A stretch of DNA of 64,000 nucleotides from Escherichia coli. Its GTDB lineage: Bacteria; Pseudomonadota; Gammaproteobacteria; Enterobacterales; Enterobacteriaceae. The position numbers were made by a program, and so were the translations under genes. Positions 22,016 to 37,429 of the stretch are shown piece after piece (position 1 is the first letter of the stretch; every line of letters begins with the position of its first letter). The stretch lies in assembly GCF_030384885.1 (NCBI RefSeq), contig NZ_CP128613.1; one strand, written 5' to 3'. Under the pieces are notes generated by a model. It searched no databases. It saw nothing but the letters and a program-made list of their open reading frames with translations, and was not told the DNA's origin.

Positions 22016-23515
22016 ATGCTAAATTTATTTGTTGGCCTTGATATATACACAGGGCTTTTGTTATTACTTGCTCTGGCATTTGTGTTGTTCTACGAAGCAA
22101 TCAATGGTTTTCATGACACGGCGAATGCGGTGGCAACCGTTATTTATACTCGTGCCATGCAGCCACAGCTTGCCGTGGTGATGGCGGCATTTTTTAACTT
22201 TTTTGGCGTATTGCTAGGCGGACTTAGCGTTGCCTATGCCATTGTCCATATGTTGCCAACCGATTTGTTGCTGAATATGGGGTCAACTCACGGCCTGGCG
22301 ATGGTCTTTTCCATGCTGCTGGCGGCGATTATCTGGAACCTGGGAACGTGGTTCTTTGGTTTACCGGCCTCCAGTTCGCATACCTTGATTGGTGCGATTA
22401 TCGGCATCGGTTTAACCAACGCGCTGTTAACCGGCTCATCGGTGATGGATGCGTTAAACCTGCGTGAAGTGACCAAAATTTTCTCCTCGCTGATTGTTTC
22501 CCCTATCGTCGGCCTGGTCATTGCGGGAGGCCTGATATTCCTGCTGCGCCGCTACTGGAGCGGGACGAAAAAGCGTGACCGTATTCACCGCATTCCGGAA
22601 GATCGCAAAAAGAAAAAAGGCAAACGTAAGCCACCATTCTGGACGCGTATTGCGCTGATTGTTTCCGCTGCGGGCGTGGCGTTTTCGCACGGCGCGAACG
22701 ACGGGCAGAAAGGGATCGGACTGGTGATGCTGGTACTGGTGGGGATTGCTCCTGCTGGTTTCGTCGTCAATATGAATGCGTCCGGCTATGAAATTACCCG
22801 TACCCGCGATGCCGTCACCAACTTTGAACACTATCTGCAACAGCATCCTGAACTGCCGCAGAAGTTGATTGCGATGGAACCTCCATTGCCTGCGGCATCG
22901 ACTGATGGCACGCAAGTAACGGAGTTTCATTGTCATCCGGCAAATACCTTTGATGCGATTGCGCGCGTTAAAACGATGTTGCCAGGTAATATGGAAAGCT
23001 ACGAGCCGTTAAGCGTGAGTCAGCGCAGCCAGCTGCGCCGCATTATGCTGTGCATCTCTGATACCTCTGCGAAGCTGGCGAAACTGCCAGGCGTCAGTAA
23101 AGAAGATCAGAACCTGCTGAAAAAACTGCGCAGCGATATGTTAAGCACCATTGAGTACGCTCCGGTGTGGATCATCATGGCGGTAGCACTGGCGCTCGGC
23201 ATTGGCACCATGATTGGCTGGCGTCGTGTAGCGATGACCATCGGTGAGAAGATTGGTAAGCGCGGCATGACGTATGCGCAAGGCATGGCGGCACAAATGA
23301 CGGCGGCAGTGTCTATCGGCCTTGCCAGTTATATTGGGATGCCCGTCTCCACAACGCACGTCCTCTCGTCTGCGGTAGCAGGGACGATGGTGGTGGACGG
23401 CGGTGGGTTACAGCGTAAAACGGTAACCAGCATCCTGATGGCGTGGGTGTTTACTTTACCGGCGGCGATTTTTCTGTCTGGTGGGTTGTACTGGATAGCA
23501 TTGCAGTTGATTTAA
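22016..23515 (+). CDS. pitB: low-affinity inorganic phosphate transporter
   Basis: Track ORF 499 aa [39 protein letters not shown]... Confidence 0.95.
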
Positions 23516-23563
23516 CCTTCCTGAAAATGCCCGGTCCTGGCGATCGGGCATTTCCATTTTTGA

Positions 23564-24256
23564 CTAGTGATAACCACACGCGGTCATAAAATCCGTAATC
23601 GCTTTTTCTGCATCAACCAGCACCTTTTCCAGTGGCTGATTGGCGTCGATATCAACCAGTTGTGCACCACCAAAGGTTAACTGTGGCGTTATGGCAATCT
23701 TTCTCGCCAGCGATTCCCGTTTATGGTCGGGTTTACGCGCGCAGGCAACTTCAAGGTCAACATTGAGTTTGATAACCAGATCAGGCTTATGGCTCGCCAT
23801 CCAGTGAAATGCTTTACGTTCCTGGCTTGCCAGCCATGAGACAAACCGGCCGCCTTCAACGTTAGGTGGGAACACCGTACCATCGTAAGCGCCAGGAATT
23901 TGGTCCTGAGGATAACGATCGGTTAAGACAATCAGCCCGCGACGACGACAGGCGAGCATATGACGAAAGCGTAACAGTCGGCGGGCGACGAAAGCGGTGA
24001 TCACCAGGGCCGGAACCGGACCCGGCAATTTTTTTGCCGTTTTCACTTCATTTTTTTCAATAGTCTTGTGCAGAGACTTTCCCATCAACGGTAATTTTGT
24101 CACTGCACGACCGACATTTCCGGCCTGTTTTCCTAAATGAACTCTTTCGGCAGCACCATATTTTTCGACAACGGTAATAAGATGTTCACACACCGTTGAC
24201 TTGCCTGAACCATCGCTACCAATAACGGCAATTAATGGAGGTGTTATTGACTGCAT
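23564..24256 (-). CDS. yghT: P-loop NTPase (Walker [11 protein letters not shown]), YghR/S/T paralog family
   Basis: Track ORF 230 aa; shares Walker A, DRYPQ and ARKPDH motifs with the two downstream paralogs. Confidence 0.88.
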
Positions 24257-24429
24257 GAATATATCCTTAAATTTAAATATCCATCAAAAATATTTATTTG
24301 GTTAATATGTTTTTATGAAAGCGTAATTCAGGTCAATGTCACAATTAACCATTGTCACAATAAGGTTGAACGGATATTCTGAGCACGGACCACGTAATAT
24401 TCAATACATTATTTTCTGCCGGGTTTTTC

Positions 24430-25143
24430 GTGAATCAACGTAATATGTCAATAATTAATTCCACGCCAGTGCGTGTTATTGCCATTGTAGGATGTGATGG
24501 TTCAGGTAAATCGACCCTCACGGCAAGCCTAGTAAATGAACTGGCAGCAACAATGCCAACAGAACACATTTATCTCGGGCAATCGTCCGGGCGAATTGGC
24601 GAATGGATTTCACAGCTCCCTGTTATTGGCGCACCTTTTGGGCGTTATCTGCGAAGTAAAGCGGCACATGTGCACGAAAAGCCCTCCACACCGCCTGGCA
24701 ATATTACTGCGCTGGTTATTTATCTGCTTTCCTGCTGGCGGGCGTATAAGTTTCGCAAAATGTTGTGTAAAAGCCAGCAAGGCTATCTGCTCATCACCGA
24801 CCGCTACCCGCAGGTTGAAGTGCCGGGTTTTCGCTTTGATGGCCCGCAACTGGCAAAAAACACGGGCGGTAACGGCTGGATAAAAATGTTAAGACAGCGC
24901 GAGCTCAAACTTTACCAATGGATGGCGTCTTATTTGCCCGTATTGTTGATTCGTCTTGGCATTGATGAACAAACCGCGTTTGCGCGTAAACCTGACCACC
25001 AACTGGCGGCGTTACAGGAAAAAATCGCTGTTACGCCGCAACTGACATTCAATGGCGCAAAGATCCTTGAACTGGATGGTCGGCAACCAGCCGATGAAAT
25101 TCTGCAAGCGTCACTACGCGCAATTCACGCCGCGCTTTCCTGA
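24430..25143 (+). CDS. yghS: P-loop NTPase (Walker A VGCDGSGKST), YghR/S/T paralog family
   Basis: Track ORF 237 aa, GTG start. Confidence 0.88.
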   Translation: MNQRNMSIINSTPVRVIAIVGCDGSGKSTLTASLVNELAATMPTEHIYLGQSSGRIGEWISQLPVIGAPFGRYLRSKAAHVHEKPSTPPGNITALVIYLLSCWRAYKFRKMLCKSQQGYLLITDRYPQVEVPGFRFDGPQLAKNTGGNGWIKMLRQRELKLYQWMASYLPVLLIRLGIDEQTAFARKPDHQLAALQEKIAVTPQLTFNGAKILELDGRQPADEILQASLRAIHAALS

Positions 25144-25173
25144 TCACCAAATGGATAGGGGATGATTTAACGA

Positions 25174-25932
25174 ATGGATGCACTACAAACACAAACTGTT
25201 AATAGTACAACCGCGCCGCAGCCCAACTACATTCCGGGGCTGATTGCGGTGGTCGGGTGTGATGGCACCGGTAAATCCACACTGACCACTGACCTGGTGA
25301 AATCGCTGCAACAACACTGGCAAACCGAGCGCCGCTATCTGGGGCTGCTCTCCGGCGAAGACGGCGACAAAATCAAACGGTTGCCGCTCGTTGGCGTCTG
25401 GCTGGAACGGCGACTGGCGGCCAAATCCTCGAAAACCCAAAGCATGAAAACCAAATCTCCGGCGCTATGGGCGGCGGTGATTATGTACTGCTTCTCGCTG
25501 CGAAGAATGGTGAATCTACGCAAGGTTCAGCGACTGGCGCAAAGTGGCGTTCTGGTGGTCAGCGATCGCTTCCCGCAGGCTGAAATTTCGGGCTTTTATT
25601 ATGACGGACCGGGGATTGGCGTCGAGCGTGCGACCGGGAAAATCAGCATGTTTCTGGCACAGCGCGAACGGCGTTTATACCAAAAAATGGCGCAATACCG
25701 TCCTGAATTAATTATTCGTTTGGGGATTGATATTGATACTGCCATCTCCCGCAAGCCTGACCATGACTATGCCGAGCTGCAGGACAAAATCGGTGTCATG
25801 TCGACGATTGGCTATAACGGCACAAAAATTCTTGAGATTGATTCCAGAGCGCCCTACAGCGAAGTGCTGGAACAGGCACAGAAGGCGGTTTCTCTGGTTG
25901 CAATCGTTTCTGACCGCCGAAGTTTAACTTAA
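25174..25932 (+). CDS. yghR: P-loop NTPase (Walker A VGCDGTGKST), YghR/S/T paralog family
   Basis: Track ORF 252 aa MDALQTQTVNSTTAPQPNYIPGLIAVVGCDGTGKST... Confidence 0.88.
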   Translation: MDALQTQTVNSTTAPQPNYIPGLIAVVGCDGTGKSTLTTDLVKSLQQHWQTERRYLGLLSGEDGDKIKRLPLVGVWLERRLAAKSSKTQSMKTKSPALWAAVIMYCFSLRRMVNLRKVQRLAQSGVLVVSDRFPQAEISGFYYDGPGIGVERATGKISMFLAQRERRLYQKMAQYRPELIIRLGIDIDTAISRKPDHDYAELQDKIGVMSTIGYNGTKILEIDSRAPYSEVLEQAQKAVSLVAIVSDRRSLT

Positions 25933-25977
25933 GGTTGGCGGGATACTTTTTACTATCAACGATAAGGTCAGGCTGAA

Positions 25978-27327
25978 TTGGCGGGGTTTAACATCAAACA
26001 TTGGTTTGCAGATGGCGCGTTTCGCACCATTATTCGCAATAGCGCCTGGTTAGGCTCCAGTAATGTCGTGAGCGCTTTGCTGGGTCTGTTGGCGCTCTCG
26101 TGTGCCGGTAAAGGGATGACGCCCGCCATGTTTGGCGTACTGGTGATTGTGCAATCGTACGCCAAGTCGATCAGCGATTTTATTAAGTTTCAGACATGGC
26201 AGCTGGTGGTTCAGTACGGAACGCCAGCCTTGACCAATAATAATCCGCAGCAATTTCGCAATGTCGTCTCATTTTCCTTCTCGTTGGATATCGTCAGCGG
26301 CGCGGTGGCGATTGTCGGCGGCATTGCCTTACTCCCTTTTCTTTCCCATTCATTAGGTCTGGATGACCAAAGCTTTTGGCTGGCAGCGCTGTATTGCACG
26401 CTCATTCCTTCAATGGCTTCCTCCACACCGACCGGCATTCTGCGTGCGGTAGATCGCTTCGATTTGATTGCTGTACAGCAGGCGACGAAACCTTTTCTGC
26501 GCGCAGCGGGGAGCGTCGTAGCCTGGTATTTTGATTTTGGTTTTGCGGGTTTTGTTATTGCCTGGTACGCATCGAATCTGGTTGGCGGCACCATGTACTG
26601 GTGGTTTGCCGCGCGCGAATTACGCCGCAGAAATATCCATAACGCCTTCAAATTGAATCTGTTTGAGTCTGCCCGACACATTAAAGGCGCGTGGAGTTTT
26701 GTCTGGTCAACCAACATTGCCCACTCCATCTGGTCGGCACGTAACTCGTGCAGCACAGTGTTGGTGGGGATCGTGTTAGGACCCGCTGCCGCCGGGTTAT
26801 TTAAAATCGCCATGACATTCTTCGATGCCGCCGGAACGCCAGCGGGTTTACTGGGCAAAAGTTTTTACCCAGAGGTAATGCGTTTAGATCCGCGTACCAC
26901 CAGACCGTGGTTGTTAGGCGTGAAGTCCGGTTTACTGGCGGGCGGAATCGGTATTCTGGTGGCGCTCGCGGTGTTGATCGTCGGCAAGCCGCTCATTTCG
27001 CTGGTGTTTGGCGTTAAGTATCTCGAAGCGTATGACCTGATTCAGGTAATGCTTGGCGCAATTGTGATTTCGATGCTGGGCTTCCCACAGGAGTCATTGC
27101 TATTGATGGCGGGAAAACAGCGCGCTTTTCTCGTGGCGCAAACCATCGCCTCAATCGGCTACATCGTATTGCTGTTCATGTTCTGTCATCTGTTTGGCGT
27201 GCTGGGGGCTGCATTTGCTTACTTCGGTGGGCAATGTCTGGATGTGGTGCTCTCGTTAATTCCAACCTTAAAGGCATTTTTTCAGCGCCATTCCTTGCTT
27301 TATAACGCAGCCGGAGAGAAATCCTGA
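25978..27327 (+). CDS. yghQ: polytopic inner membrane protein, MOP/Wzx-type flippase-like; start codon uncertain (first ATG in frame at 26116)
   Basis: Track ORF 449 aa (non-ATG start at 25978); many hydrophobic helices; stop overlaps next gene start (TGATG). Confidence 0.8.
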   Translation: MAGFNIKHWFADGAFRTIIRNSAWLGSSNVVSALLGLLALSCAGKGMTPAMFGVLVIVQSYAKSISDFIKFQTWQLVVQYGTPALTNNNPQQFRNVVSFSFSLDIVSGAVAIVGGIALLPFLSHSLGLDDQSFWLAALYCTLIPSMASSTPTGILRAVDRFDLIAVQQATKPFLRAAGSVVAWYFDFGFAGFVIAWYASNLVGGTMYWWFAARELRRRNIHNAFKLNLFESARHIKGAWSFVWSTNIAHSIWSARNSCSTVLVGIVLGPAAAGLFKIAMTFFDAAGTPAGLLGKSFYPEVMRLDPRTTRPWLLGVKSGLLAGGIGILVALAVLIVGKPLISLVFGVKYLEAYDLIQVMLGAIVISMLGFPQESLLLMAGKQRAFLVAQTIASIGYIVLLFMFCHLFGVLGAAFAYFGGQCLDVVLSLIPTLKAFFQRHSLLYNAAGEKS

Positions 27328-28151
27328 TGATGAGAAAATATTTCCCGCTTGAGGCGAGCGAGCGTCTATTTATTGCAGTTGAAGAAGATGATGTCGTTGA
27401 TGCGCAGGTCAGTTTACCGCCGACTATCGCAACAGGTTGTACCACCGAAATCATTCATGATAATTACGCGTTATGCCTGCAATTCTGGCTGAATGGCGTT
27501 GATCGTCAGGAATTACTGCGTTTAATCCACAAACAAGCCAAAGGCGAGGGGCTTACGGCTGACGAGCGTAAACAGTTTAAATATATGCGGGCGCGTTATA
27601 AGCATCTGCGTTTCGCTCAGCGACTGTATCTGAAAAAACACAAGGCAGGATTTTTATTCGGCAAAACGACGGTATGTCTGGGCCATTTTCAGGATGGTTT
27701 CCGTAACGGTAAAAAAAATATTGTGTCGTATTACGGCAACCTGTTACGGATTTATTTAAGCTCTCCGGTCTGGTCGTTGGTGAACTATTCATTACGCCAT
27801 AGCCAGTTAGAAAGCGTAAGCGGTTTTATTGCCTATCGGCAAAAGCAAATGCATACCCTGAAAGAGATAATTGCCAAACCGCGACTAACCGGCAGGGAAT
27901 TTCATGATGTGCGAAAAATCATCAGCCAGCAGGTTTCTTATTACGACACCCTAAGATCGCTTGATCCTGAAAAAAAAGAAGCGTTACAGATTTCCCGCTT
28001 CCTCGCCGCCATTAATGGCCTGATGGGGGATAAACACGACGACATGGTGGCGGATGATATGGAAAACCGCCAGTCGTATGATGCACCGATGGCGCTGGAT
28101 AGCGATATTCGTCAGCGCTTAGAACTGCTGATTTCGCGTTTTCCGCTATAA
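27327..28151 (+). CDS. hypothetical soluble protein, no recognisable motif
   Basis: Track ORF 274 aa MMRKYFPLEASERLFIAVEEDD...; start overlaps yghQ stop; codon usage protein-like. Confidence 0.6.
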   Translation: MMRKYFPLEASERLFIAVEEDDVVDAQVSLPPTIATGCTTEIIHDNYALCLQFWLNGVDRQELLRLIHKQAKGEGLTADERKQFKYMRARYKHLRFAQRLYLKKHKAGFLFGKTTVCLGHFQDGFRNGKKNIVSYYGNLLRIYLSSPVWSLVNYSLRHSQLESVSGFIAYRQKQMHTLKEIIAKPRLTGREFHDVRKIISQQVSYYDTLRSLDPEKKEALQISRFLAAINGLMGDKHDDMVADDMENRQSYDAPMALDSDIRQRLELLISRFPL

Positions 28152-28159
28152 CCGGAGCA

Positions 28160-28723
28160 ATGATGTCATCTCGTTTGATTATTGCGCTGATTATCATGCT
28201 CTTAGCCCCGGGTGTGCAGGCACACAATTTCGTCACGGGTAAAACGGTTACCCCTGTTTATATCCAGGAAGGCGGCGAGCTGCTTCTGAATAGCGACGAC
28301 GAAATTCACTACCAAAAGTGGAACAGCACACAGCTGGCGGGAAAAGTCCGCATTATTCAGTATATCGCCGGGCGTAAGTCGGCGAAGAAAAAGAACTCAC
28401 TGTTAATTAAAGCGGTTGAAGCGGCAAACTTTCCGCAGGATCGTTTTCAGCCCACCACCATTGTGAACACCGATGATGCCATCTTTGGTACTGGCTATTT
28501 TGTCGTTGGCAAAATCGAAAAAAATAAACGCCGCTATCCGTGGGCGCAATTCGTTATTGACGGCAATGGACAGGGACGCGTTGCCTGGCGGTTGCCGGAG
28601 CAGAGTTCAACCATTCTGGTGCTGAATAAAGCCGGGCAAATTCAGTGGGCAAAGGACGGCAGCCTGACGCCGGAAGAGGTAGATCATGTCATTGCGCTGG
28701 CGCAGAAGCTGATCAATGAATAA
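28160..28723 (+). CDS. YtfJ-family periplasmic protein (paralog of core ytfJ), signal peptide MMSSRLIIALIIMLLAPGVQA
   Basis: Track ORF 187 aa; collinear similarity to remembered E. coli YtfJ (shared stretches VVQYIAGR.., TTIVNTDDAI, YPW.QFV.D, WAKDG.LTPEEV). Confidence 0.75.
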   Translation: MMSSRLIIALIIMLLAPGVQAHNFVTGKTVTPVYIQEGGELLLNSDDEIHYQKWNSTQLAGKVRIIQYIAGRKSAKKKNSLLIKAVEAANFPQDRFQPTTIVNTDDAIFGTGYFVVGKIEKNKRRYPWAQFVIDGNGQGRVAWRLPEQSSTILVLNKAGQIQWAKDGSLTPEEVDHVIALAQKLINE

Positions 28724-28752
28724 AAATTCAAAGGATTGAGGGCGTTAGTGAG

Positions 28753-29823
28753 ATGAAGCTGGTTGAACACTACATCATGCGTGGTACTCGCCGTCTGGTG
28801 CTGATTATCGTCGGTTTTCTGATCTTTATTTTCGCCAGCTACTCCGCACAGCGTTATCTGACCGAAGCGGCAAATGGGACATTAGCTCTTGATGTTGTGC
28901 TGGATATTGTTTTCTACAAGGTGCTGATTGCACTGGAGATGTTGTTACCTGTTGGACTGTATGTGTCAGTTGGCGTGACGCTAGGGCAGATGTATACCGA
29001 CTCGGAAATTACCGCTATTTCTGCGGCGGGGGGGAGTCCGGGACGCTTGTACAAAGCCGTTCTTTATCTGGCGATACCGCTAAGTATTTTTGTCACCCTT
29101 CTGTCGATGTATGGTCGTCCGTGGGCTTATGCGCAGATTTATCAACTGGAGCAACAGTCGCAGTCGGAGCTGGATGTTCGCCAGTTGCGGGCAAAGAAAT
29201 TTAACACTAACGATAACGGACGAATGATCCTTTCGCAGACGGTTGATCAGGATAATAATCGCCTGACTGACGTGCTGATTTATACTTCTACTGCCAATCG
29301 AACCCGTATTTTCCGCGCCCGTTCGGTTGATGTAGTTGACCCATCACCCGAGAAACCGACCGTTATGTTGCATAACGGGACCGCCTATCTTCTCGATCAT
29401 CAGGGACGTGACGACAACGAACAGATCTACCGTAATCTGCAATTGCATCTGAATCCGCTGGATCAAAGCCCTAACGTCAAACGCAAAGCAAAATCGGTCA
29501 CGGAGCTGGCGCGCTCCGCCTTTCCTGCCGATCATGCCGAACTGCAATGGCGACAAAGCCGTGGCCTGACAGCATTGTTGATGGCGCTGCTGGCCATTTC
29601 ATTAAGTCGGGTAAAACCGCGGCAAGGGCGATTTTCAACGTTATTGCCACTGACGTTGCTGTTTGTTGCCATTTTTTATGGCGGCGACGTCTGCCGTACG
29701 CTGGTGGCTAACGGCGCGATTCCCCTCATTCCTGGTTTGTGGTTAGTACCCGGACTCATGCTAATGGGCCTGCTGATGCTGGTCGCACGCGACTTCTCTT
29801 TGCTGCAGAAATTTTCCCGATGA
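28753..29823 (+). CDS. LptF-like permease (YjgP/YjgQ family), paralog of core lptF
   Basis: Track ORF 356 aa; N-terminal TM bundle, conserved YTDSEITAISAAG segment resembling LptF LYTESEITVMHACG, large periplasmic insert, C-terminal TMs. Confidence 0.8.
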   Translation: MKLVEHYIMRGTRRLVLIIVGFLIFIFASYSAQRYLTEAANGTLALDVVLDIVFYKVLIALEMLLPVGLYVSVGVTLGQMYTDSEITAISAAGGSPGRLYKAVLYLAIPLSIFVTLLSMYGRPWAYAQIYQLEQQSQSELDVRQLRAKKFNTNDNGRMILSQTVDQDNNRLTDVLIYTSTANRTRIFRARSVDVVDPSPEKPTVMLHNGTAYLLDHQGRDDNEQIYRNLQLHLNPLDQSPNVKRKAKSVTELARSAFPADHAELQWRQSRGLTALLMALLAISLSRVKPRQGRFSTLLPLTLLFVAIFYGGDVCRTLVANGAIPLIPGLWLVPGLMLMGLLMLVARDFSLLQKFSR

Positions 29824-30899
29824 ATGTTTTCAGTCGCTATTTAATCCGTCATCTCTTTCTCGGTTTTGCCGCCGCCGCAGGGCTATTGCTGCCGCTTTTT
29901 ACTACCTTCAACCTGATTAACGAACTGGATGATGTCAGCCCGGGTGGTTATCGCTGGACTCAGGCGGTGCTGGTGGTGCTGATGACCTTACCGCGCACAC
30001 TGGTCGAACTTTCGCCGTTTATCGCCTTATTGGGGGGGATTGTCGGCTTGGGGCAGTTATCGAAAAACAGTGAGCTTACCGCCATTCGCAGCACGGGGTT
30101 TTCTATCTTCCGTATTGCACTGGTGGCGCTGGTTGCCGGGATATTGTGGACTGTTTCATTAGGCGCGATAGATGAGTGGGTGGCGTCGCCATTGCAGCAA
30201 CAGGCGCTGCAAATCAAATCGACTGCCACTGCGTTGGGGGAGGACGATGACATTACCGGCAATATGCTGTGGGCCAGGCGTGGTAATGAATTTGTGACGG
30301 TGAAATCGCTGAACGAGCAGGGCCAGCCGGTGGGCGTGGAGATATTTCATTACCGCGACGATCTCTCGCTCGAATCCTACATTTATGCACGCAGTGCCAC
30401 CATTGAAGACGACAAAACGTGGATCCTGCATGGTGTGAATCATAAAAAATGGCTGAATGGCAAAGAAACGCTGGAAACATCTGATAATCTTGCCTGGCAA
30501 TCGGCCTTCACCAGTATGAATCTTGAAGAGTTATCGATGCCGGGAAATACTTTTTCTGTCCGTCAACTTAATCATTACATCCATTATTTGCAGGAAACCG
30601 GGCAACCCAGCAGCGAATACCGCCTTGCACTGTGGGAAAAACTGGGACAACCCATCTTGACCCTGGCGATGATTTTGCTGGCTGTGCCGTTTACCTTTAG
30701 TGCCCCGCGTTCGCCTGGGATGGGTAGCCGTCTCGCTGTAGGCGTCATCGTGGGCTTACTCACCTGGATCAGCTATCAAATCATGGTCAATCTGGGATTG
30801 CTATTTGCGTTGAGCGCACCTGTTACCGCGCTCGGTTTACCGATAGCGTTTATGCTGGTGGCGTTGAGCCTGGTGTATTGGTATGACAGTCAACATTAA
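29820..30899 (+). CDS. LptG-like permease (YjgP/YjgQ family), paralog of core lptG
   Basis: Track ORF 29739..30899; start trimmed to MNVFSRYLIRHLFLGF (359 aa), ATGA overlap with upstream permease; segment NSELTAIRSTGFS resembles LptG. Confidence 0.8.
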   Translation: MNVFSRYLIRHLFLGFAAAAGLLLPLFTTFNLINELDDVSPGGYRWTQAVLVVLMTLPRTLVELSPFIALLGGIVGLGQLSKNSELTAIRSTGFSIFRIALVALVAGILWTVSLGAIDEWVASPLQQQALQIKSTATALGEDDDITGNMLWARRGNEFVTVKSLNEQGQPVGVEIFHYRDDLSLESYIYARSATIEDDKTWILHGVNHKKWLNGKETLETSDNLAWQSAFTSMNLEELSMPGNTFSVRQLNHYIHYLQETGQPSSEYRLALWEKLGQPILTLAMILLAVPFTFSAPRSPGMGSRLAVGVIVGLLTWISYQIMVNLGLLFALSAPVTALGLPIAFMLVALSLVYWYDSQH

Positions 30900-30933
30900 A
30901 CCCGCCGTGGCGCAGCACCACAGCGGGCTCACA

Positions 30934-32106
30934 TTACTGCTTCAGAGTAGCAAATGCCTGAATGATGGCATCGATTTGCTCACGAGTGTGGGCAGCGTTT
31001 ACGCTACAGCGCAGCAGCGTGATGCCTGCAGGCGCGGCAGGTGGCAGGATAAGATTCACATAAACGCCCAGCGAAATAAGCTCGCGCCAGATGCGTAAAC
31101 CTTCCTCTTTCGAACCGATTATCACTGGCACTACCGGGCTAATATGTGAACTTAACTCGTAACCCAGTTTTTGCAGACCGTCATACAGATGGTTGGCGTT
31201 ATCCATCAGCTTTTGCCGCAACTCTGGTTGTGAGGCAATGGTTCTTAACGACGAGCGCACGGTCGCAATGCAGGACGGAGAAGGAGAGGCGGTAAAAATA
31301 TACGGGCGGCTGCCGTAGCGCAGCACTTCCATCGCTTCCGAACCGACAGCAAAACCGCCAATCGAGGCCAGACTTTTACTGAAAGTACCAACGATAATAT
31401 CCACATCATCTTCAACGCCAACGGCTTCAGCCAGTCCGCGCCCCGTTGCGCCTAACACGCCAAACGAATGCGCTTCATCGACAATCAAATAACCACCGAG
31501 ACGACGTTTGATATCAACAATTTCCGCCAGCGGCGCAATGTCACCGAGCATACTGTAGATGCCTTCAACGATGATAATCGCCTCTTTTGCCCGTTCACCG
31601 AGGCGAACCATGCGCCGTTCCAGATCTTTAGCATCGTTATGGCGGAAACGAATAATTTCCGCTCCACCGAGAGAACAGGCGTCATAAATACTGGCGTGGC
31701 TGTCGGCATCCAGTAACACTACGGCGTTATGGTCGGCAAGTGCGCTGATGACACCTAAATTAGCGGTATAACCGGTTGAAAAAACGATAGCGGTAGGGCG
31801 ATTGAAAAACTCGGCAATTTCTTTCTCTAACGCCAGATGTGGCGCATAGCTGCCATTAGCCATACGAGAACCGGTAGTGCCGGTGCCTTGGGCCGCTAAC
31901 GCTGCCTGACCTTCGGCGATGGCATCATGATTGAAGGTTAAACCGAGATAATTATTGGTCCCGGCCAGGATCACGTTTTTATCGCCGATCCGGCCTTCGG
32001 TGGCGGAATACACTTCATCAATACAGGTACCAAACGGCGTTAACCCGTTGTCACTAAATTGCAGTCGCTCGCCAGCAAGGCGCGCATATTTATCGTATAG
32101 CCCCAT
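30934..32106 (-). CDS. PLP-dependent alpha-oxoamine synthase, serine palmitoyltransferase-like (third AOS paralog besides bioF and kbl)
   Basis: Track ORF 390 aa; PLP-lysine motif IVGTFSKSLASIGG, DEAHSFG motif, glycine-rich GTGTTGSR segment; TAATG overlap with upstream ACP. Confidence 0.85.
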   Translation of the reverse strand: MGLYDKYARLAGERLQFSDNGLTPFGTCIDEVYSATEGRIGDKNVILAGTNNYLGLTFNHDAIAEGQAALAAQGTGTTGSRMANGSYAPHLALEKEIAEFFNRPTAIVFSTGYTANLGVISALADHNAVVLLDADSHASIYDACSLGGAEIIRFRHNDAKDLERRMVRLGERAKEAIIIVEGIYSMLGDIAPLAEIVDIKRRLGGYLIVDEAHSFGVLGATGRGLAEAVGVEDDVDIIVGTFSKSLASIGGFAVGSEAMEVLRYGSRPYIFTASPSPSCIATVRSSLRTIASQPELRQKLMDNANHLYDGLQKLGYELSSHISPVVPVIIGSKEEGLRIWRELISLGVYVNLILPPAAPAGITLLRCSVNAAHTREQIDAIIQAFATLKQ

Positions 32107-32354
32107 TATTTATTCTCCAGCCATGGAAGTAGAGTTTCCATTAATTGCGCAGGGGTTTTGACATCCAGCAGAATATTAATAGGAATGGAAATATCGAATC
32201 TGTCTTCCAGCATCATTAAGAGATCCATCACTTTGATCGACTCCAGGCCAAGATCGTTGACGAGATCGCTGTCGGGCTTAATTTCCACACCGTTTTCGAC
32301 CAAATCCTGTAAACAGGAAAGGATGTAATCCATTACTATTTCACGATTTACCAT
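32106..32354 (-). CDS. acyl carrier protein (dedicated), candidate phosphopantetheine site in DLGLESIKVMDL
   Basis: Track ORF 82 aa; acidic four-helix ACP-like sequence; position between reductase and AOS. Confidence 0.7.
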   Translation of the reverse strand: MVNREIVMDYILSCLQDLVENGVEIKPDSDLVNDLGLESIKVMDLLMMLEDRFDISIPINILLDVKTPAQLMETLLPWLENK

Positions 32355-32385
32355 AGAAACGTTAACACACCTTTAAACAAGACAA

Positions 32386-33300
32386 TCAAAATAGCCCGTT
32401 GCGTAATGCGTGTTCCAGGCTAATCCCGGGAAACCAATTAATATCTTCAGAAATACGGTTATTACTTGCTGACCAGTCGGTGTGGGTTAATTCACGGATT
32501 TTCGAGCGGGTCAGCATAGGTTCTTTACCTGCCAGGCGACTCAACGCGGTACTGATATCCGCAAGGCAGGTGAGTACCGACAGAGGAATACCAACCATTC
32601 GAACGGAACCGCAACGGGCGTCGGCGGCAAGTTGCTGTACGCGTTGCCAGTCATAGCCGCCGGCGACGCCATCGCATAATTCATAGGTTTGCGTCTGTAC
32701 AGTTTCGGCGCTTAACCACTGCCCCACGGCTTGCGCGAAATCGGTGACGTGCAGGAAAGAGAGCTGTGTATCTGGCGCACCAAGTCGTGGCAGCAGGCCG
32801 CGCAGCATCCAGTCAAACAGCGGTTTTAACTCTTTATCGCCGGGACCATACACGGCTGTCGGGCGAAAAATGCCCAGCGTAATTTCGTCAGCCATTGCGG
32901 TCAGTCGTTGTTCGGCGACGTGTTTGGAATTTGCGTACCAGGAGAGTTCGGGATGGCGCGCCGCCAGCGAAGAGATAAACAGAAAACGTTGGCAAAAGCC
33001 GCTCTCTTTTGCCGCTTGCATCAGGCGCAGGCTGCCGTCAACGTTACAGCGGGTAAAAATCTCTTCTTTGTGTCCGCGCACTTGCCCGGCGCAATGGACC
33101 ACCGCGCTGGCTCCGGCAACCAGTTCGCTAAGCGAATGTGTATCTTCCAGCGAACCGCGCACCCAGATGAGATTATCATTGACGTGAGCGCGGGCAGTAC
33201 GCGTCAATGCGCGAACGTGAAAGCCGCGGGCGAGCAGGTTATCGATAATATATTTACCGATAAACCCGGTAGCGCCCGTCACCGCGACAGTTTGATTCAT
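32386..33300 (-). CDS. NAD(P)-dependent reductase of the epimerase/dehydratase SDR type (candidate 3-keto-sphinganine/ceramide reductase)
   Basis: Track ORF 304 aa; N-terminal VAVTGATGFIGKY Rossmann motif, YANSK (YxxxK); ATGA overlap with upstream FAAL. Confidence 0.8.
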   Translation of the reverse strand: MNQTVAVTGATGFIGKYIIDNLLARGFHVRALTRTARAHVNDNLIWVRGSLEDTHSLSELVAGASAVVHCAGQVRGHKEEIFTRCNVDGSLRLMQAAKESGFCQRFLFISSLAARHPELSWYANSKHVAEQRLTAMADEITLGIFRPTAVYGPGDKELKPLFDWMLRGLLPRLGAPDTQLSFLHVTDFAQAVGQWLSAETVQTQTYELCDGVAGGYDWQRVQQLAADARCGSVRMVGIPLSVLTCLADISTALSRLAGKEPMLTRSKIRELTHTDWSASNNRISEDINWFPGISLEHALRNGLF

Positions 33301-35015
33301 GCCATTGATTCCTGCACATGAAGGCTTGCAGCATAACGTTTTTTCGCTTCCGCACGGGCAGGCTTGCCGGAGGACGTTCGGGGAATACTGTGGGGCGGCA
33401 ACAGATCGATAGCCGCTGTTACGCCAAATTCGCTTTGGATCCGTGCTGCCAGTGCGTGGATAAGCTGCCCACGACGTTCTTCGTCGCTGATCCTACACTG
33501 GATCTGCAAAATGATTTTTTCCTGGGCGGTAACAAAAGCAATCGCATCGCCAGAATGAATTTCCGGTTCCTGTTCCGCAATATATTCAATATCCTGCGGC
33601 CAGATATTACGGCCACGAATAATAATCAGATCTTTAATGCGCCCGGTGACATACAGATAACCGTCCAGCAGATAACCGAGGTCGCCGGTATCTAACCAGC
33701 CCGTCGCGGCAATCTCGTCTTGCGAAACCTGGTCGCCAAAGTAACCGCTCATCAGGCTGGGGCCGGAGATGCAAATATGGCCTACCACACGTTCCGCGAC
33801 TGGCATACCTGCTTCATTGCGGATTTCAATGCCATGTTCCGGCAACGCTTTACCGCAGTTGACGAAAGTCGATACGGCGCGTGTTTCAGCACCCGGCGTG
33901 ACGGCTTTGCCCTGATATTCAAGAATGTCGCGATCCACTTCGTTAACCACAACCCCGGAGGCTTCATCAGAGAAGCTGACAGCCAGCGCATTTTCTGCCA
34001 GTCCGTAGCACGGCATGAAAGTTTTATCGTCAAAGTTAACCTGACGGAAACATTCAGCGAATTGATGGAGTTGTTCTGCGGAGATCGGCTCAGCACCAAT
34101 ACCAGCAACGCGCCAGCAGGAAAGATCCAGTTCAGCGAGATCTTTTTCATTCACGCGGCGCTGGCACAATTCATAGCCAAACGGCGGCGCAACGGAAACG
34201 GTGCCGCGATTTTTACTGATCAATTTAAGCCATTGCAGAGGACGCATGGCAAAATCCTGAGTGCGCAAATAATCTACTGAGAGCTGCGTGGCGACGGGGG
34301 TCAGGAGAAAGCCGACCAGTCCCATATCATGGTAGAAAGGCAGCCAGGAGACGCAGCGGTCGCCAGGGCGTAATTTAATGCCATCGTGGCTTATAGCACG
34401 TAGATTAGCCATCACTTCGCGATGGGTGATAATGACGCCACGGGGAAAACGGGTGCTGCCGGAGGTGTACTGGAGGTAGGCGATATCGTTCGGAACTGGA
34501 CGCTGGAGTACAACATCGGCTTCCGGTAATGCCTTAAACCAGGCGTGGCTTAAAACATGTAATTCGGGGTTGTTATGCGTAGCAGCATTGACCAGTGGCA
34601 ACCACTCATCACCAGTGATAATGGCTGCGGGCTGGCAACTTGCCAGTAGACCCTGCAGTTTGGCGCTCCAGGAATCCCGCTGACCGACGCCCATTGGAAT
34701 TGCCAACGGGACGGCGACTAAGCCGGCATACTGGCAGGCAAAAAAAGCCTCTACAAACCCGCTACTCGTTTCGGCAATCAGCGCCACGCGATCGCCTTTT
34801 TTCAGATTCAGTGATAACAACCGCTTCGCACCAGCTTCGGCACGCGCTTTTAACGTCTGATATTCCAGTTGATCTTCAAGTTGGCAACGTCTGTCATAAA
34901 AATTCATTCCGGCGCTACTCAGAGCGGCGTAGTCCAAAGCATCAACCAGCGTTGGAAAATCGGCATAGCGCATAGGTAGGGAATGCGTAAAGATGTTATT
35001 AGACATATACACCAC
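33297..35015 (-). CDS. fatty acyl-AMP ligase / acyl-ACP synthetase (adenylate-forming); start at GTG 35015 or ATG ~35006
   Basis: Track ORF 572 aa; AMP-binding signature YTSGSTRFPRGV, second motif TGDLGY; first gene of the minus-strand operon. Confidence 0.85.
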   Translation of the reverse strand: MVYMSNNIFTHSLPMRYADFPTLVDALDYAALSSAGMNFYDRRCQLEDQLEYQTLKARAEAGAKRLLSLNLKKGDRVALIAETSSGFVEAFFACQYAGLVAVPLAIPMGVGQRDSWSAKLQGLLASCQPAAIITGDEWLPLVNAATHNNPELHVLSHAWFKALPEADVVLQRPVPNDIAYLQYTSGSTRFPRGVIITHREVMANLRAISHDGIKLRPGDRCVSWLPFYHDMGLVGFLLTPVATQLSVDYLRTQDFAMRPLQWLKLISKNRGTVSVAPPFGYELCQRRVNEKDLAELDLSCWRVAGIGAEPISAEQLHQFAECFRQVNFDDKTFMPCYGLAENALAVSFSDEASGVVVNEVDRDILEYQGKAVTPGAETRAVSTFVNCGKALPEHGIEIRNEAGMPVAERVVGHICISGPSLMSGYFGDQVSQDEIAATGWLDTGDLGYLLDGYLYVTGRIKDLIIIRGRNIWPQDIEYIAEQEPEIHSGDAIAFVTAQEKIILQIQCRISDEERRGQLIHALAARIQSEFGVTAAIDLLPPHSIPRTSSGKPARAEAKKRYAASLHVQESMA

Positions 35016-35377
35016 GAAAAAAATTGGATATCAGAAATAAAATGACAATAATGCGGTGGATTATATAGGCATAAAAGATAAATGAGATAGTATTTTCATC
35101 GGTGCGATATTGAACATTGATTTAAATAATAGGTTTGGCTTTGTTGTTTTTATTGTGAATGATATTTAATTTATGAATATATTAAGAAGAAGCCTTGTTT
35201 GGTTGCCTTAAATCGACAAAAGGCATTGAGGCGCTTCTGTGTAGTCTCTGACCTTATCTTAATTATTAATAAATACTATTTATTCTTTGTTTGTATTCAT
35301 TGGGTTGATTATTAAGATGCCGTTCGTTGCTGTTGCAATCTGTTTGTCACCGTTAATTATTTGTTATCCACAGAGAT
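35016..35377. promoter_or_regulatory. AT-rich divergent promoter region between the FAAL operon (-) and yghO (+)
   Basis: ~360 bp strongly AT-rich with A/T tracts; flanked by divergent start codons; typical of H-NS-bound, horizontally acquired regulatory regions. Confidence 0.5.
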
Positions 35378-36520
35378 ATGGAATGCGATCTGCTGATGAT
35401 TAAAATTGAAAAAGTAATTAATAAAAATGACATTAAGGCATTTATCGCTTTTCCGTCATCACTTTATCCCGATGATCCAAACTGGATACCCCCTTTGTTC
35501 ATTGAACGCAGCGAGCATTTGTCGGCGAAGAATCCGGGGACGGACCATATTATCTGGCAGGCGTGGGTAGCAAAAAAAGCGGGGCAGATAGTCGGGCGGA
35601 TTACCGCGCAAATCGATACCTTGCACCGCGAGCGTTACGGTGACGATACCGGTCATTTTGGCATGATTGACGCCATTGATGATCCGCAGGTTTTTGCCGC
35701 TTTGTTTGGCGCAGCGGAAGCATGGTTGAAGTTACAAGGTGCCAGTATGATCAGCGGGCCTTTCAGCCTGAATATCAATCAGGAAAGCGGATTACTGATT
35801 GAAGGTTTCGACACTCCGCCCTGTGCGATGATGCCGCACGGTAAACCGTGGTATGCCGCGCATATTGAACAATTGGGTTATCACAAAGGTATTGATTTAC
35901 TGGCGTGGTGGATGCAACGAACCGATCTCACTTTCTCTCCGGCGCTAAAAAAACTGATGGATCAGGTACGCAAAAAGGTGACCATTCGTTGCATCAATCG
36001 TCAGCGGTTTGCTGAAGAGATGCAGATCCTGCGTGAGATTTTCAACTCTGGCTGGCAGCACAACTGGGGATTTGTGCCGTTTACCGAACATGAATTCGCT
36101 ACCATGGGCGATCAACTAAAGTATCTGGTACCGGACGATATGATCTACGTCGCTGAGATTGGTTCTGCACCCTGCGCGTTTATTGTCGGCTTGCCGAACA
36201 TCAACGAGGCGATTGCCGATCTGAACGGATCGCTCTTTCCCTTCGGCTGGGCAAAATTGCTGTGGCGCTTAAAAGTCAGCGGTGTGCGAACTGCGCGAGT
36301 GCCGCTGATGGGCGTGCGTGACGAGTATCAGTTCAGCCGCATCGGCCCGGTGATTGCGCTGTTATTGATTGAAGCCTTACGCGATCCGTTTGCTCGCCGG
36401 AAGATCGATGCGCTGGAAATGTCATGGATCCTCGAAACCAATACAGGCATGAATAACATGCTGGAACGCATTGGAGCGGAGCCGTACAAGCGTTACCGAT
36501 TGTATGAAAAGCAGATTTAA
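35378..36520 (+). CDS. yghO: YghO, full-length; candidate N-acyltransferase (GNAT/FemAB-like fold suspected, not verified)
   Basis: Track ORF 380 aa MECDLLMIKIEKVINKNDIKAF...; position between the lipid operon and glcC. Confidence 0.75.
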   Translation: MECDLLMIKIEKVINKNDIKAFIAFPSSLYPDDPNWIPPLFIERSEHLSAKNPGTDHIIWQAWVAKKAGQIVGRITAQIDTLHRERYGDDTGHFGMIDAIDDPQVFAALFGAAEAWLKLQGASMISGPFSLNINQESGLLIEGFDTPPCAMMPHGKPWYAAHIEQLGYHKGIDLLAWWMQRTDLTFSPALKKLMDQVRKKVTIRCINRQRFAEEMQILREIFNSGWQHNWGFVPFTEHEFATMGDQLKYLVPDDMIYVAEIGSAPCAFIVGLPNINEAIADLNGSLFPFGWAKLLWRLKVSGVRTARVPLMGVRDEYQFSRIGPVIALLLIEALRDPFARRKIDALEMSWILETNTGMNNMLERIGAEPYKRYRLYEKQI

Positions 36521-36658
36521 TACCAGATCCCATTAAGCGCACGGACGGTCATTCGGGAGAGTGTATAGATGAACAGATTTAACATCAGATCCTATTAAGC
36601 GCAGGGGCGGTCCCCTCGCCCCTCAGGGAGAGGGTTAGGGTGAGGGGGAAAACTCGGC

Positions 36659-37429
36659 TCACATTCCCCCCTTGTTCATCTCCAGTGGCACCGCCGAGCG
36701 AATCAAATGGTGGCCTTCCAGTTCGATATCGTGGAGATTCTTTTTCACGGTCCGCACATGATCACGTGCGGCGCGCTGGGCGACGTGCGGCAGTCGCTGC
36801 AACACCGCGTTGTAGATCCGCGCATGTTGGCGATCGATCTGCTTTTTTTGCTGTGGTCGATGGTAGAGATTATTTACGCTGGCAAACACTGAATTAAACA
36901 TCAGATCGGTCAATGATTGCAGCGTAAAAACTAGCACCTGATTGTGGGAAGCCTGACAAATGGCAAGATGGAAAGCATGATCCAGCTGCGCGTGTTCGAT
37001 CAGCGAAATTTCTTTGTTGTTTTCACTGGCGGCGAGCATTTTTTCATAACAGCGGGTTATCAAAACAAAATCCGCCTGGGTTCCCAGCGTAGCTGCCAAC
37101 CTTGCCGATTCGCCTTCCAGCAATGCGCGAACGTCGAGTAGATCGTATAGCGTTCGCGGCTGTGTACTGAACAGATGGATCAGCGGGCTGGTGTCCTGCA
37201 CGCGATTAAGGCGTGCGACACGAGAATCGCGCCCCTGTGCTGTTTCAATAATCCCGCGTCCGCGCAGCACGGTCAGCCCTTCACGCAGTGCGGAACGCGA
37301 GAAGCCGAGCTTTTCACACAGTCGACGCTCCGAAGGAAGCGGCTGACCGACCTTCAGCACGCCGTCGATAATTAACCGTTCGATACTCTCTGCAACCACT
37401 TCGCAAATAGGGCGACGTTCATCTTTCAT
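36659..37429 (-). CDS. glcC: GntR-family activator of the glycolate operon
   Basis: Track ORF 36659..37489; start trimmed to MKDERRPICEVVAESIERLIIDG. Confidence 0.93.
   Translation of the reverse strand: MKDERRPICEVVAESIERLIIDGVLKVGQPLPSERRLCEKLGFSRSALREGLTVLRGRGIIETAQGRDSRVARLNRVQDTSPLIHLFSTQPRTLYDLLDVRALLEGESARLAATLGTQADFVLITRCYEKMLAASENNKEISLIEHAQLDHAFHLAICQASHNQVLVFTLQSLTDLMFNSVFASVNNLYHRPQQKKQIDRQHARIYNAVLQRLPHVAQRAARDHVRTVKKNLHDIELEGHHLIRSAVPLEMNKGGM

Follow-up and report, generated by a model that had tools for sequence, protein, structure and literature searches.

In a 64,000-nucleotide stretch of Escherichia coli DNA (contig NZ_CP128613.1; this whole stretch is called the window below) we studied yghT, yghS and yghR, three neighbouring genes for P-loop proteins, together with yghQ and the lipid genes that follow. 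Our reading is that YghT, YghS and YghR would be three ancient, non-redundant and soluble cytoplasmic kinases of the thymidylate kinase (Tmk) fold, which make an anionic phospho-sphingolipid before it is flipped by YghQ and exported by LptF2 and LptG2. We give this full reading a probability of roughly 0.55. Parts of it can be held with more confidence: the three genes very probably belong to the sphingolipid pathway, and it is likely that their products are kinases. A preliminary description of this DNA had noted the paralogs and their lipid context, but overlooked that the lipid module is the published ceramide pathway and that the first gene of its 'accessory module' encodes a CHAD-fold protein. 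Already known were the sphingolipid clusters of bacteria, lipids of the ceramide phosphate type and LptF2G2. New is the assignment of the kinase trio, the CHAD-fold protein and YghQ to the sphingolipid pathway, with families that are unrelated to CpgABC of Caulobacter. We found no functional study of yghQRST in the searchable literature, and none that ties yghQ, yghR, yghS, yghT or the gene of the 274-amino-acid CHAD-fold protein to sphingolipids. The genes at the centre of the proposal are the following.

23564-24256, minus strand: yghT, predicted Tmk-fold P-loop kinase paralog T, 230 amino acids, soluble, divergent from yghS
24430-25143, plus strand: yghS, predicted Tmk-fold kinase paralog S, 237 amino acids, signature YLGQSSG, always paired with yghR
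25174-25932, plus strand: yghR, predicted Tmk-fold kinase paralog R, 252 amino acids, with DRFPQ and SRKPDH
25978-27327, plus strand: yghQ, Wzx/PST-type MOP flippase-like polytopic membrane protein, 449 amino acids, TTG start
27327-28151, plus strand: uncharacterised cytoplasmic all-helical CHAD-fold protein of 274 amino acids, translationally coupled to yghQ

The lengths and strands given earlier for the three paralogs of 230-252 amino acids agree with their open reading frames. The proteins align end to end with 33-36% identity, and their likeness, judged from the alignment, is far beyond what a common P-loop would give: 55 columns are invariant among the three window proteins and 21 across 122 homologs. 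All three have the Walker A described before, G[CS]DG[ST]GKST, which reads GCDGTGKST in YghR. The other two motifs that had been described as common to the trio are found as DRYPQ and ARKPDH in YghT and YghS only, while YghR has DRFPQ and SRKPDH. Residues G13, D15, G16, G18, K19, D113, R114, P116, R174, K175, D177 and H178 (YghT numbering) are invariant in 122 of 122 homologs of T, S and R, and with Walker A, DRxP and RKxDH kept in this way all three paralogs look catalytically competent, none of them being a degenerate pseudo-enzyme. Hydropathy gave no membrane segment in YghT, YghS or YghR.

The best solved relatives of the 122-homolog profile are thymidylate kinases (E 2e-6), with the P-loop, the DR region and the LID aligned. 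The P-loop GxxGxGK[ST], the DR[YHF] and the basic LID of Tmk are present and invariant in the 122 homologs, the invariant RKPDH segment aligns with the Tmk LID, and the trio has the three-dimensional fold of Tmk. What sets the family apart from Tmk is a conserved insert of ~40 residues (about 40-79) between the P-loop helix and the DR strand. This insert carries orthogroup signatures at residues ~40-70, which are HLGKQaGN in T, YLGQSSG in S and YLGLvSGE.GDKIK in R. Such a conserved signature of its own for each orthogroup argues for differing acceptors or for differing roles in a complex. The trio also falls far under the thresholds of the Tmk families, with NCBIfam dTMP-kinase (TIGR00041) scores of 25.7, 24.7 and 30.6 bits versus a cutoff of 83.25 and no significant match to Pfam Thymidylate_kin (PF02223; the i-Evalue for YghS is 0.025). 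The RefSeq product name 'dTMP kinase' is thus an overcall, and a genuine dTMP kinase was set aside because of the scores, the insert and the genomic context, in which three paralogs are kept together among genes of lipid synthesis and not of nucleotide metabolism.

The small-kinase fold that had been suggested by analogy with LpxK or dNMP kinases was right with regard to Tmk and is not supported with regard to LpxK. LpxK is built of two domains with a membrane helix at its N-terminus, and YghT, YghS and YghR are without a transmembrane segment. LpxK was not among the best 60 structural matches of the trio, and on this fold ranking an LpxK-like identity was rejected. The likeness that stays is a functional analogy, as LpxK, the lipid A 4'-kinase and the known lipid kinase with a P-loop, adds phosphate to a membrane lipid on the cytoplasmic side, ahead of flipping. 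PPK2 was not the closest family of the trio in structure or in sequence either. Homology to Caulobacter CpgB was rejected as well. CpgB is a diacylglycerol kinase (DAGK)-type enzyme with a GGDG motif (PMC10331486), whereas the trio has the P-loop Tmk fold and no similarity to it; neither Pfam nor NCBIfam gave a match to the DAGK catalytic domain, and there is no GGDG in YghT, YghS or YghR. None of the other genes of the Caulobacter cluster is described as a P-loop kinase (PMC10331486, PMC11324152).

The flippase-like and polytopic nature of YghQ, and the overlap of its stop with the next gene, were both seen correctly in the preliminary description. YghQ matches Pfam Polysacc_synt PF01943 (2.7e-8) and PF13440 (1.3e-7) and has at least eight strongly hydrophobic segments by hydropathy, which is the combination of domain and polytopic topology of PST/Wzx-type MOP flippases. 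Its match to the NCBIfam MOP flippase model is weak (1.4e-8), with 34 bits versus an equivalog cutoff of 273, and it is therefore not a WzxC ortholog. It also differs from the Wzx/PST flippases in that no polysaccharide cluster surrounds it and that its presumed cargo is a sphingolipid, not an undecaprenyl-diphosphate-linked glycan. As read from the sequence, the TGA stop of yghQ (27325-27327) and the next ATG (27327-27329) have one base in common (TGATG).

This next gene encodes the 274-amino-acid protein, for which fold comparison was the only route to a family. It had no Pfam or NCBIfam match and no sequence match among the solved structures in the PDB, solved CHAD chains included; in particular, no sequence similarity was detectable to Ricinus CHAD (6qv5), PptA (6rn5) or the CYTH-CHAD protein YgiF of E. 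coli (5a61). Pfam CHAD (PF05235) was reached by only one of its 48 homologs (2.1e-5), and not by the E. coli protein. The structural model (predicted local distance difference test score, pLDDT, 94.9) is all-helical and has the CHAD helical fold, and the protein is without a signal peptide or membrane segment. CHAD domains are modules that bind polyphosphate. The 274-amino-acid family has many invariant Arg, Lys and His residues, including R60, R88, K92, H93, R95, H105, H193, R196 and H237, and these basic residues are compatible with binding of inorganic polyphosphate. Unlike the CHAD phosins, the protein is not fused to CYTH and is encoded by the side of kinases and a lipid flippase, not of polyphosphate-granule genes. 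It is the most constant neighbour of the kinases, present in 61 of the 79 loci introduced below, even where spt is out of reach, and as their most conserved partner it alters the likely chemistry.

The lipid module next to these genes is the published bacterial (rhodobacterial) ceramide gene set together with LptF2 and LptG2. All five ceramide genes, namely spt, acpR, cerR/epi, aasR and aca/bCerS (yghO), lie within 11 kb on the segment of the trio, contiguous as in the rhodobacterial ceramide cluster. In E. coli BL21 the genes ECD_02850-02854 have been named aca (yghO), aasR, epi, acpR and spt, and activity was demonstrated for AcpR, AasR and Spt (PMC9386255). The module in the window is composed as follows.

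28160-28723, plus strand: YtfJ-family periplasmic protein (YtfJ2), a paralog with a signal peptide (TIGR01626, 212 bits, above cutoff; hydrophobic N-terminus)
28753-29823, plus strand: lptF2, LptF paralog (TIGR04407, 323 bits)
29820-30899, plus strand: lptG2, LptG paralog, overlapping lptF2 by 4 nucleotides (TIGR04408, 308 bits; annotation)
30934-32106, minus strand: spt, serine palmitoyltransferase (RefSeq annotation; BL21 ortholog ECD_02854 assayed, PMC9386255)
32106-32354, minus strand: acpR, specialised acyl carrier protein (annotation; PMC9386255)
32386-33300, minus strand: cerR/epi, NAD-dependent epimerase/dehydratase-family ceramide reductase homolog (annotation; PMC9386255, PMC11087976)
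33297-35015, minus strand: aasR, acyl-AcpR synthetase, a fatty acyl-AMP ligase (annotation; PMC9386255)
35378-36520, plus strand: yghO, N-acyltransferase, homolog of aca / bacterial ceramide synthase (annotation; ECD_02850 is aca in PMC9386255)

The closest known counterpart of this arrangement is in Caulobacter, where ceramide is converted to anionic phosphosphingolipids, ceramide phosphate-based lipids, by the cluster-encoded soluble cytoplasmic enzymes CpgB (CC_1160), CpgA, CpgC, CC_1152, CC_1153 and CC_1158 (PMC10331486, PMC11324152). Like the Cpg genes there, the trio adjoins spt-acpR-cerR-aasR and LptF2/G2. The E. coli cluster is without any Cpg gene and has the trio and the CHAD-fold protein instead. 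By annotation and NCBIfam it contains no glycosyltransferase, CDP-alcohol transferase or DAGK-type ceramide kinase, and the predicted kinases would therefore be the sole head-group chemistry that it encodes. In Caulobacter, Spt and bCerS are found in the cytoplasm and CerR reportedly in the periplasm, and an inner-membrane flippase is not known (PMC11087976), which makes a cytoplasmic kinase step before flipping topologically reasonable. The lptF2 and lptG2 of the window exceed the NCBIfam cutoffs for LptF and LptG and, as in Caulobacter, lie in a sphingolipid locus; the transport of sphingolipids requires the Caulobacter proteins along with housekeeping LptB (bioRxiv 10.64898/2026.04.12.717747). 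Compared with LptB2FG, the window genes are second copies without an LptB or LptC of their own and with a YtfJ-family protein encoded in front.

In the mechanism that we propose, the products of aasR, acpR, spt and yghO would assemble (oxo)ceramide on the cytoplasmic side of the inner membrane. The kinases and the CHAD protein would then use ATP to place one or more phosphates onto the C1 hydroxyl and/or an existing phosphate, giving an anionic phospho-sphingolipid. What the CHAD-fold protein binds would be either this head group, rich in phosphate, or polyphosphate as the donor. The anionic product would next be flipped by the Wzx-like YghQ to the periplasmic side, from where LptF2 and LptG2, probably powered by the housekeeping LptB, would extract it toward the outer membrane. 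YtfJ2 may be a periplasmic lipid-handling partner of LptF2G2 in this last step. The gene of this second YtfJ-family protein, between the CHAD gene and lptF2, occurs in Enterobacterales loci only, and in Halioglobus-type loci (L068, L074) an LptA-like gene adjoins lptF2 in its place, which is our ground for suggesting such a partner.

If this is correct, a testable function is supplied for yghQ, yghR, yghS and yghT, which have long been without an assigned function in the best-studied bacterium, and there would be a second route to anionic sphingolipids that is unrelated to Caulobacter CpgABC. A CHAD-fold protein would also have a role apart from polyphosphate granules, and the widespread misannotation as 'dTMP kinase' would be put right. 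An anionic sphingolipid in the outer membrane of E. coli could affect the sensitivity to polymyxin and detergent and the interaction with the host, as in Caulobacter. The intact locus, which K-12 has lost, is carried by pathogens and by the production strain BL21, and it offers candidates for the head groups of gamma-proteobacteria, for an inner-membrane sphingolipid flippase and for the choice of cargo by LptF2G2.

The assignment to the pathway depends to a large extent on comparative genomics. We scanned one genome per species, which gave 79 loci from several proteobacterial orders (44 Enterobacterales-like and 35 others), and located 14 proteins of the window in them by tblastn. In 51 of the 79 loci, ceramide genes are found no more than 10 kb from yghT, 42 of these among the 44 Enterobacterales-like ones and nine among the others. 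All three kinases are present in 43 of the 44, and within reach in 20 of the other 35 loci, where a yghQ-like flippase is found in 17 and a homolog of the 274-amino-acid protein in 21. The view that the trio belongs functionally with the lipid module is supported by this survey and by the occurrence of the family in sphingolipid-linked taxa, as the linkage of trio and ceramide genes is retained in at least five gene orders across Enterobacterales, Xanthomonadales and beta/gamma-proteobacterial metagenome-assembled genomes (MAGs). The gene order of the window is also that of Escherichia, Citrobacter and Erwinia. In Serratia, Mangrovibacter, Klebsiella indica and some Pantoea (L033, L039) the ceramide genes are on the opposite side of yghT. 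Directly adjoining yghR are spt in L012 and yghO in Sodalis (L020) and Erwinia endophytica (L026), while Rahnella, Rosenbergiella, Pantoea coffeiphila and similar loci have the order spt-acpR-cerR-aasR, yghO, yghR-yghS, yghT. Dyella, Rhodanobacter and Luteibacter have hyp274-yghQ-spt-acpR-cerR-aasR (hyp274 being the gene of the 274-amino-acid protein), then yghR-yghS and a divergent yghT. The order is cerR-acpR-spt-yghQ', then yghR-yghS-hyp274 and a divergent yghT, in Methylotenera, Rhodocyclaceae and several gamma-proteobacterial MAGs.

The same tblastn comparison shows that orthologs of T, S and R from distant taxa are 46-64% identical to their E. coli counterparts, compared with 31-36% between paralogs, which makes the triplication an old event. 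Foldseek against AFDB50 detected members of the family in Sphingobium (three, with consecutive accessions), Novosphingobium, Zymomonas, Acetobacter, Gluconobacter, Commensalibacter, Azotobacter and some Pseudomonas, taxa that are known or predicted sphingolipid makers or carriers of spt (PMC9386255, PMC11324152).

Two side observations concern individual loci. Some yghR orthologs have an in-frame stop or an ambiguous base in the tblastn range (Erwinia persicina NBRC 102418, L015:8349-9074; Tatumella morbirosei, L038:8265-8960; a Rhodocyclaceae MAG, L069:6975-7670), which could be due to pseudogenisation or to sequencing error. A 'Pseudomonas sp.' MAG (L027) and 'Martelella alba' (L028) have clusters of enterobacterial type with 62-78% protein identity to E. 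coli, which suggests horizontal transfer, mis-binning or contamination.

To survey the neighbours, all open reading frames of the 79 loci were clustered and representatives were scanned. The clusters outside the enterobacteria contain PAP2 lipid phosphatases (LpxE-like in 19 loci, SepP/PgpB/LpxF-like in 14) and, in nine loci, an LmtA-like lipid-phosphate O-methyltransferase, the stop of which overlaps the yghT start in L061, a translational coupling. Given that PAP2 enzymes and LmtA act on the phosphates of membrane lipids, these neighbours are independent support for a phosphorylated lipid product. Also found there are an OlsC/LpxO-like acyl hydroxylase (14 loci), an LptA-like protein (five loci), glycosyltransferases of the GT4 family, and RND pumps like MdtBC that come with an outer-membrane factor. 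Example positions of such added genes are L057:10696-12255, L061:9234-9974 and L040:7595-8353. A search for fusions among 1.84 billion representatives gave 312 relatives at E<=1e-30 and 1,743 at E<=1e-10. These include an S-R kinase fusion (P0241) and a T-R kinase fusion from Oecophyllibacter (P0028, L081) that adjoins a homolog of the 274-amino-acid protein, as well as a fusion of MOP flippase, nucleotidyltransferase and kinase (P0374) and one of GT4 and kinase (P0334), each seen in a single metagenomic protein. A large and distant kinase subfamily has an N-terminal NTP_transf_5-like nucleotidyltransferase domain (P0281). We dropped this subfamily as evidence for a link to lipids because its context is unrelated: L083 and L084 have no ceramide, CHAD or flippase genes, and the neighbours there have at most weak matches to the kinase and CHAD profiles.

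There are several points that weigh against a role of the trio as sphingolipid kinases. The role is derived from sequence, fold and genomic context, and E. coli is a presumed sphingolipid maker, of whose BL21 proteins just three, Spt, AcpR and AasR, were assayed (PMC9386255). Beyond the Enterobacterales and Xanthomonadales, ceramide genes are within 10 kb in just nine of 35 loci, and several beta-proteobacterial loci consist of YghT and CHAD with GT4, PAP2 and RND genes and have no spt in reach, so that the ancestral substrate could be another envelope lipid. A substrate that is a soluble head group or a sugar would likewise agree with the distant members fused to a nucleotidyltransferase-like domain or to GT4. 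Zymomonas and Azotobacter are reported to have orthologs of the CpgB-type ceramide kinase (PMC11324152), and both genera also hold YghT-family members, which means that the trio is not simply 'the' ceramide kinase. The reported periplasmic location of Caulobacter CerR (PMC11087976) makes it uncertain which lipid species a cytoplasmic kinase would meet. Finally, K-12 retains intact yghT, yghS and yghR without ceramide genes, and K-12 knockouts gave no change of silkworm virulence in a screen (PMC9278758).

These points lead to a number of alternative explanations. The trio could be part of the sphingolipid pathway and yet act on a soluble precursor of the head group (a sugar, a glycerate-like acid or a nucleotide), which another enzyme, possibly encoded elsewhere, then transfers to ceramide. 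The NMP-kinase fold usually handles small soluble substrates, the fusions of distant members to an NTP_transf_5-like domain or GT4 resemble kinase-plus-activation pathways, GT4 genes occur in several of the non-enterobacterial clusters, and the proposed CPG2 pathway of Caulobacter employs nucleotidyltransferases (PMC11324152). Despite this we consider it unlikely, as the clusters of E. coli, Citrobacter, Erwinia, Serratia and Xanthomonadales have no transferase able to attach such a precursor, and as the recurring PAP2 and LmtA-like neighbours work on lipid-bound phosphates. It is more doubtful that the trio are NTPases without phosphotransfer, joined in a hetero-oligomer by which YghQ, LptF2G2 or the CHAD protein would be regulated, assembled or energised. 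Three conserved paralogs and the S-R and T-R fusions do suggest a complex, and the locus has no lptB paralog. MOP flippases are secondary transporters, however, and the invariant DR motif and LID-like RKxDH are features of kinases, while the trio has neither the ABC signature nor the Walker B features and ABC models match it in the P-loop region only. The LptF2G2 of Caulobacter, as noted, works with the housekeeping LptB.

Another envelope lipid, such as a lipid A/Kdo phosphate or a polyprenyl phosphate, might be the core substrate of a YghT and CHAD module that was secondarily recruited to a place beside sphingolipid genes in some lineages. This is suggested by Nitrotoga, Methylotenera-type and other beta-proteobacterial loci, which have YghT and CHAD with GT4, two PAP2, LmtA-like and RND genes and no spt within 10 kb, and by neighbours whose best matches are enzymes of lipid A and undecaprenyl diphosphate. 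But spt may be elsewhere in those genomes, in one Methylotenera MAG (L057) spt directly adjoins the very same set of genes, and the ceramide linkage is nearly universal in Enterobacterales and Xanthomonadales, which together leave this explanation distinctly improbable. Hardly credible is that the trio are ordinary dTMP kinases, whose position by the lipid genes has no functional meaning. It would agree with the RefSeq name and with Tmk being the closest family by sequence and fold. The low scores and the extra insert described above speak against it, the ceramide linkage survives many rearrangements across classes, the family is confined to particular taxa and not universal, and E. coli has a separate essential tmk. 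A further possibility extends the proposed lipid kinase role and is, in our estimate, quite doubtful. The three enzymes might act in series, like NMP and NDP kinases, to give a ceramide di- or triphosphate or a polyphosphate-primed head group, with the oligophosphate held by the CHAD protein, YghQ flipping a product of the lipid-diphosphate type and the periplasmic PAP2 phosphatases and LmtA-like methyltransferase of other taxa then trimming or capping the phosphates. YghQ would then be likened to Wzx and MurJ, which flip undecaprenyl-diphosphate cargo. Should it be true, the lipid would belong to a new class in bacterial outer membranes, and the CHAD fold would serve in a new way.

The organisation of the locus includes two non-coding features.

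23525-23553, no strand assigned: hairpin terminator in the convergent gap of pitB and yghT, left boundary of the locus (12-bp stem with 6 GC pairs, then a T run)
24257-24429, no strand assigned: AT-rich divergent promoter region of yghT and yghS, 173 bp (GC 0.39)

As had been stated, yghS and yghR are in tandem (30-nucleotide gap) and yghT is inverted, divergent across the 173-bp spacer. The gaps from yghS to lptG2 are 30, 45, -1, 8, 29 and -4 nucleotides, all at most 45 and with overlap at two junctions. The hairpin at 23525-23553 is the only strong terminator-like site within 23400-31100, and we found no convincing terminator inside yghS-lptG2, where the matches are short and weak. Short gaps, overlaps, the lack of an internal terminator and the AT-rich divergent spacer fit a single operon, so yghS to lptG2 probably form one unit of seven genes that is divergent from yghT. 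The spacer has promoter-like sites on both strands. It also contains a direct repeat, CAATGTCACAAT / CATTGTCACAAT, at 24334-24361 with 16-nucleotide spacing, which overlaps the predicted -35 of the yghS promoter and is conserved in Pseudocitrobacter, Citrobacter, Shimwellia and Hafnia. This repeat is a candidate operator of a regulator. A Pho box in the same spacer was considered and dropped, as the TGTCAC repeats are 16 nucleotides apart and not 11.

In K-12 the genes are indeed orphans, as described before, and the reason is an IS5-associated deletion of 8.4 kb. The homology of K-12 (L082) to the window breaks off within yghQ, at 27046, and is taken up again at 35418, barely into yghO, with IS5 in place of window positions 27047-35417 (8,371 bp). 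K-12 has thereby lost the end of yghQ, which is truncated, the gene of the 274-amino-acid protein, ytfJ2, lptF2G2, spt, acpR, cerR, aasR and the start of yghO. The segment 23400-31000 is present to 80% or more in 4,099 of 5,426 complete E. coli genomes, or about three quarters.

Over its wider surroundings the window is close to a known chromosome. Segment 15400-39000 is 99.99% identical to that of E. coli 2013C-4282, with one gap and one mismatch over 23.6 kb, and the RefSeq annotation of this chromosome has the same genes as the open reading frames of the window. The order is hyb genes, yghU, gss, pitB, yghT (minus strand), then yghS, yghR, yghQ, the 274-amino-acid gene, the YtfJ-family gene and the lptF-like and lptG-like genes (all plus), followed by spt and the genes of the acyl carrier protein, the epimerase/dehydratase-family protein and the fatty acyl-AMP ligase (all minus), yghO (plus) and glcC. 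No Rfam family was found in 23000-37000. A role in anti-phage defence was considered and rejected, PADLOC giving only P-loop-level noise for YghT, YghS and YghR and nothing for the CHAD protein, YghQ or YtfJ2. The lptF paralog of 2013C-4282 (L001 13354-14423) is annotated as frameshifted; the copy in the window is an intact reading frame of 356 amino acids that matches TIGR04407 end to end. The spacer of aasR and yghO (35016-35377) is very AT-rich (GC 0.31 in 35000-35499) and probably serves the locus as another divergent promoter region.

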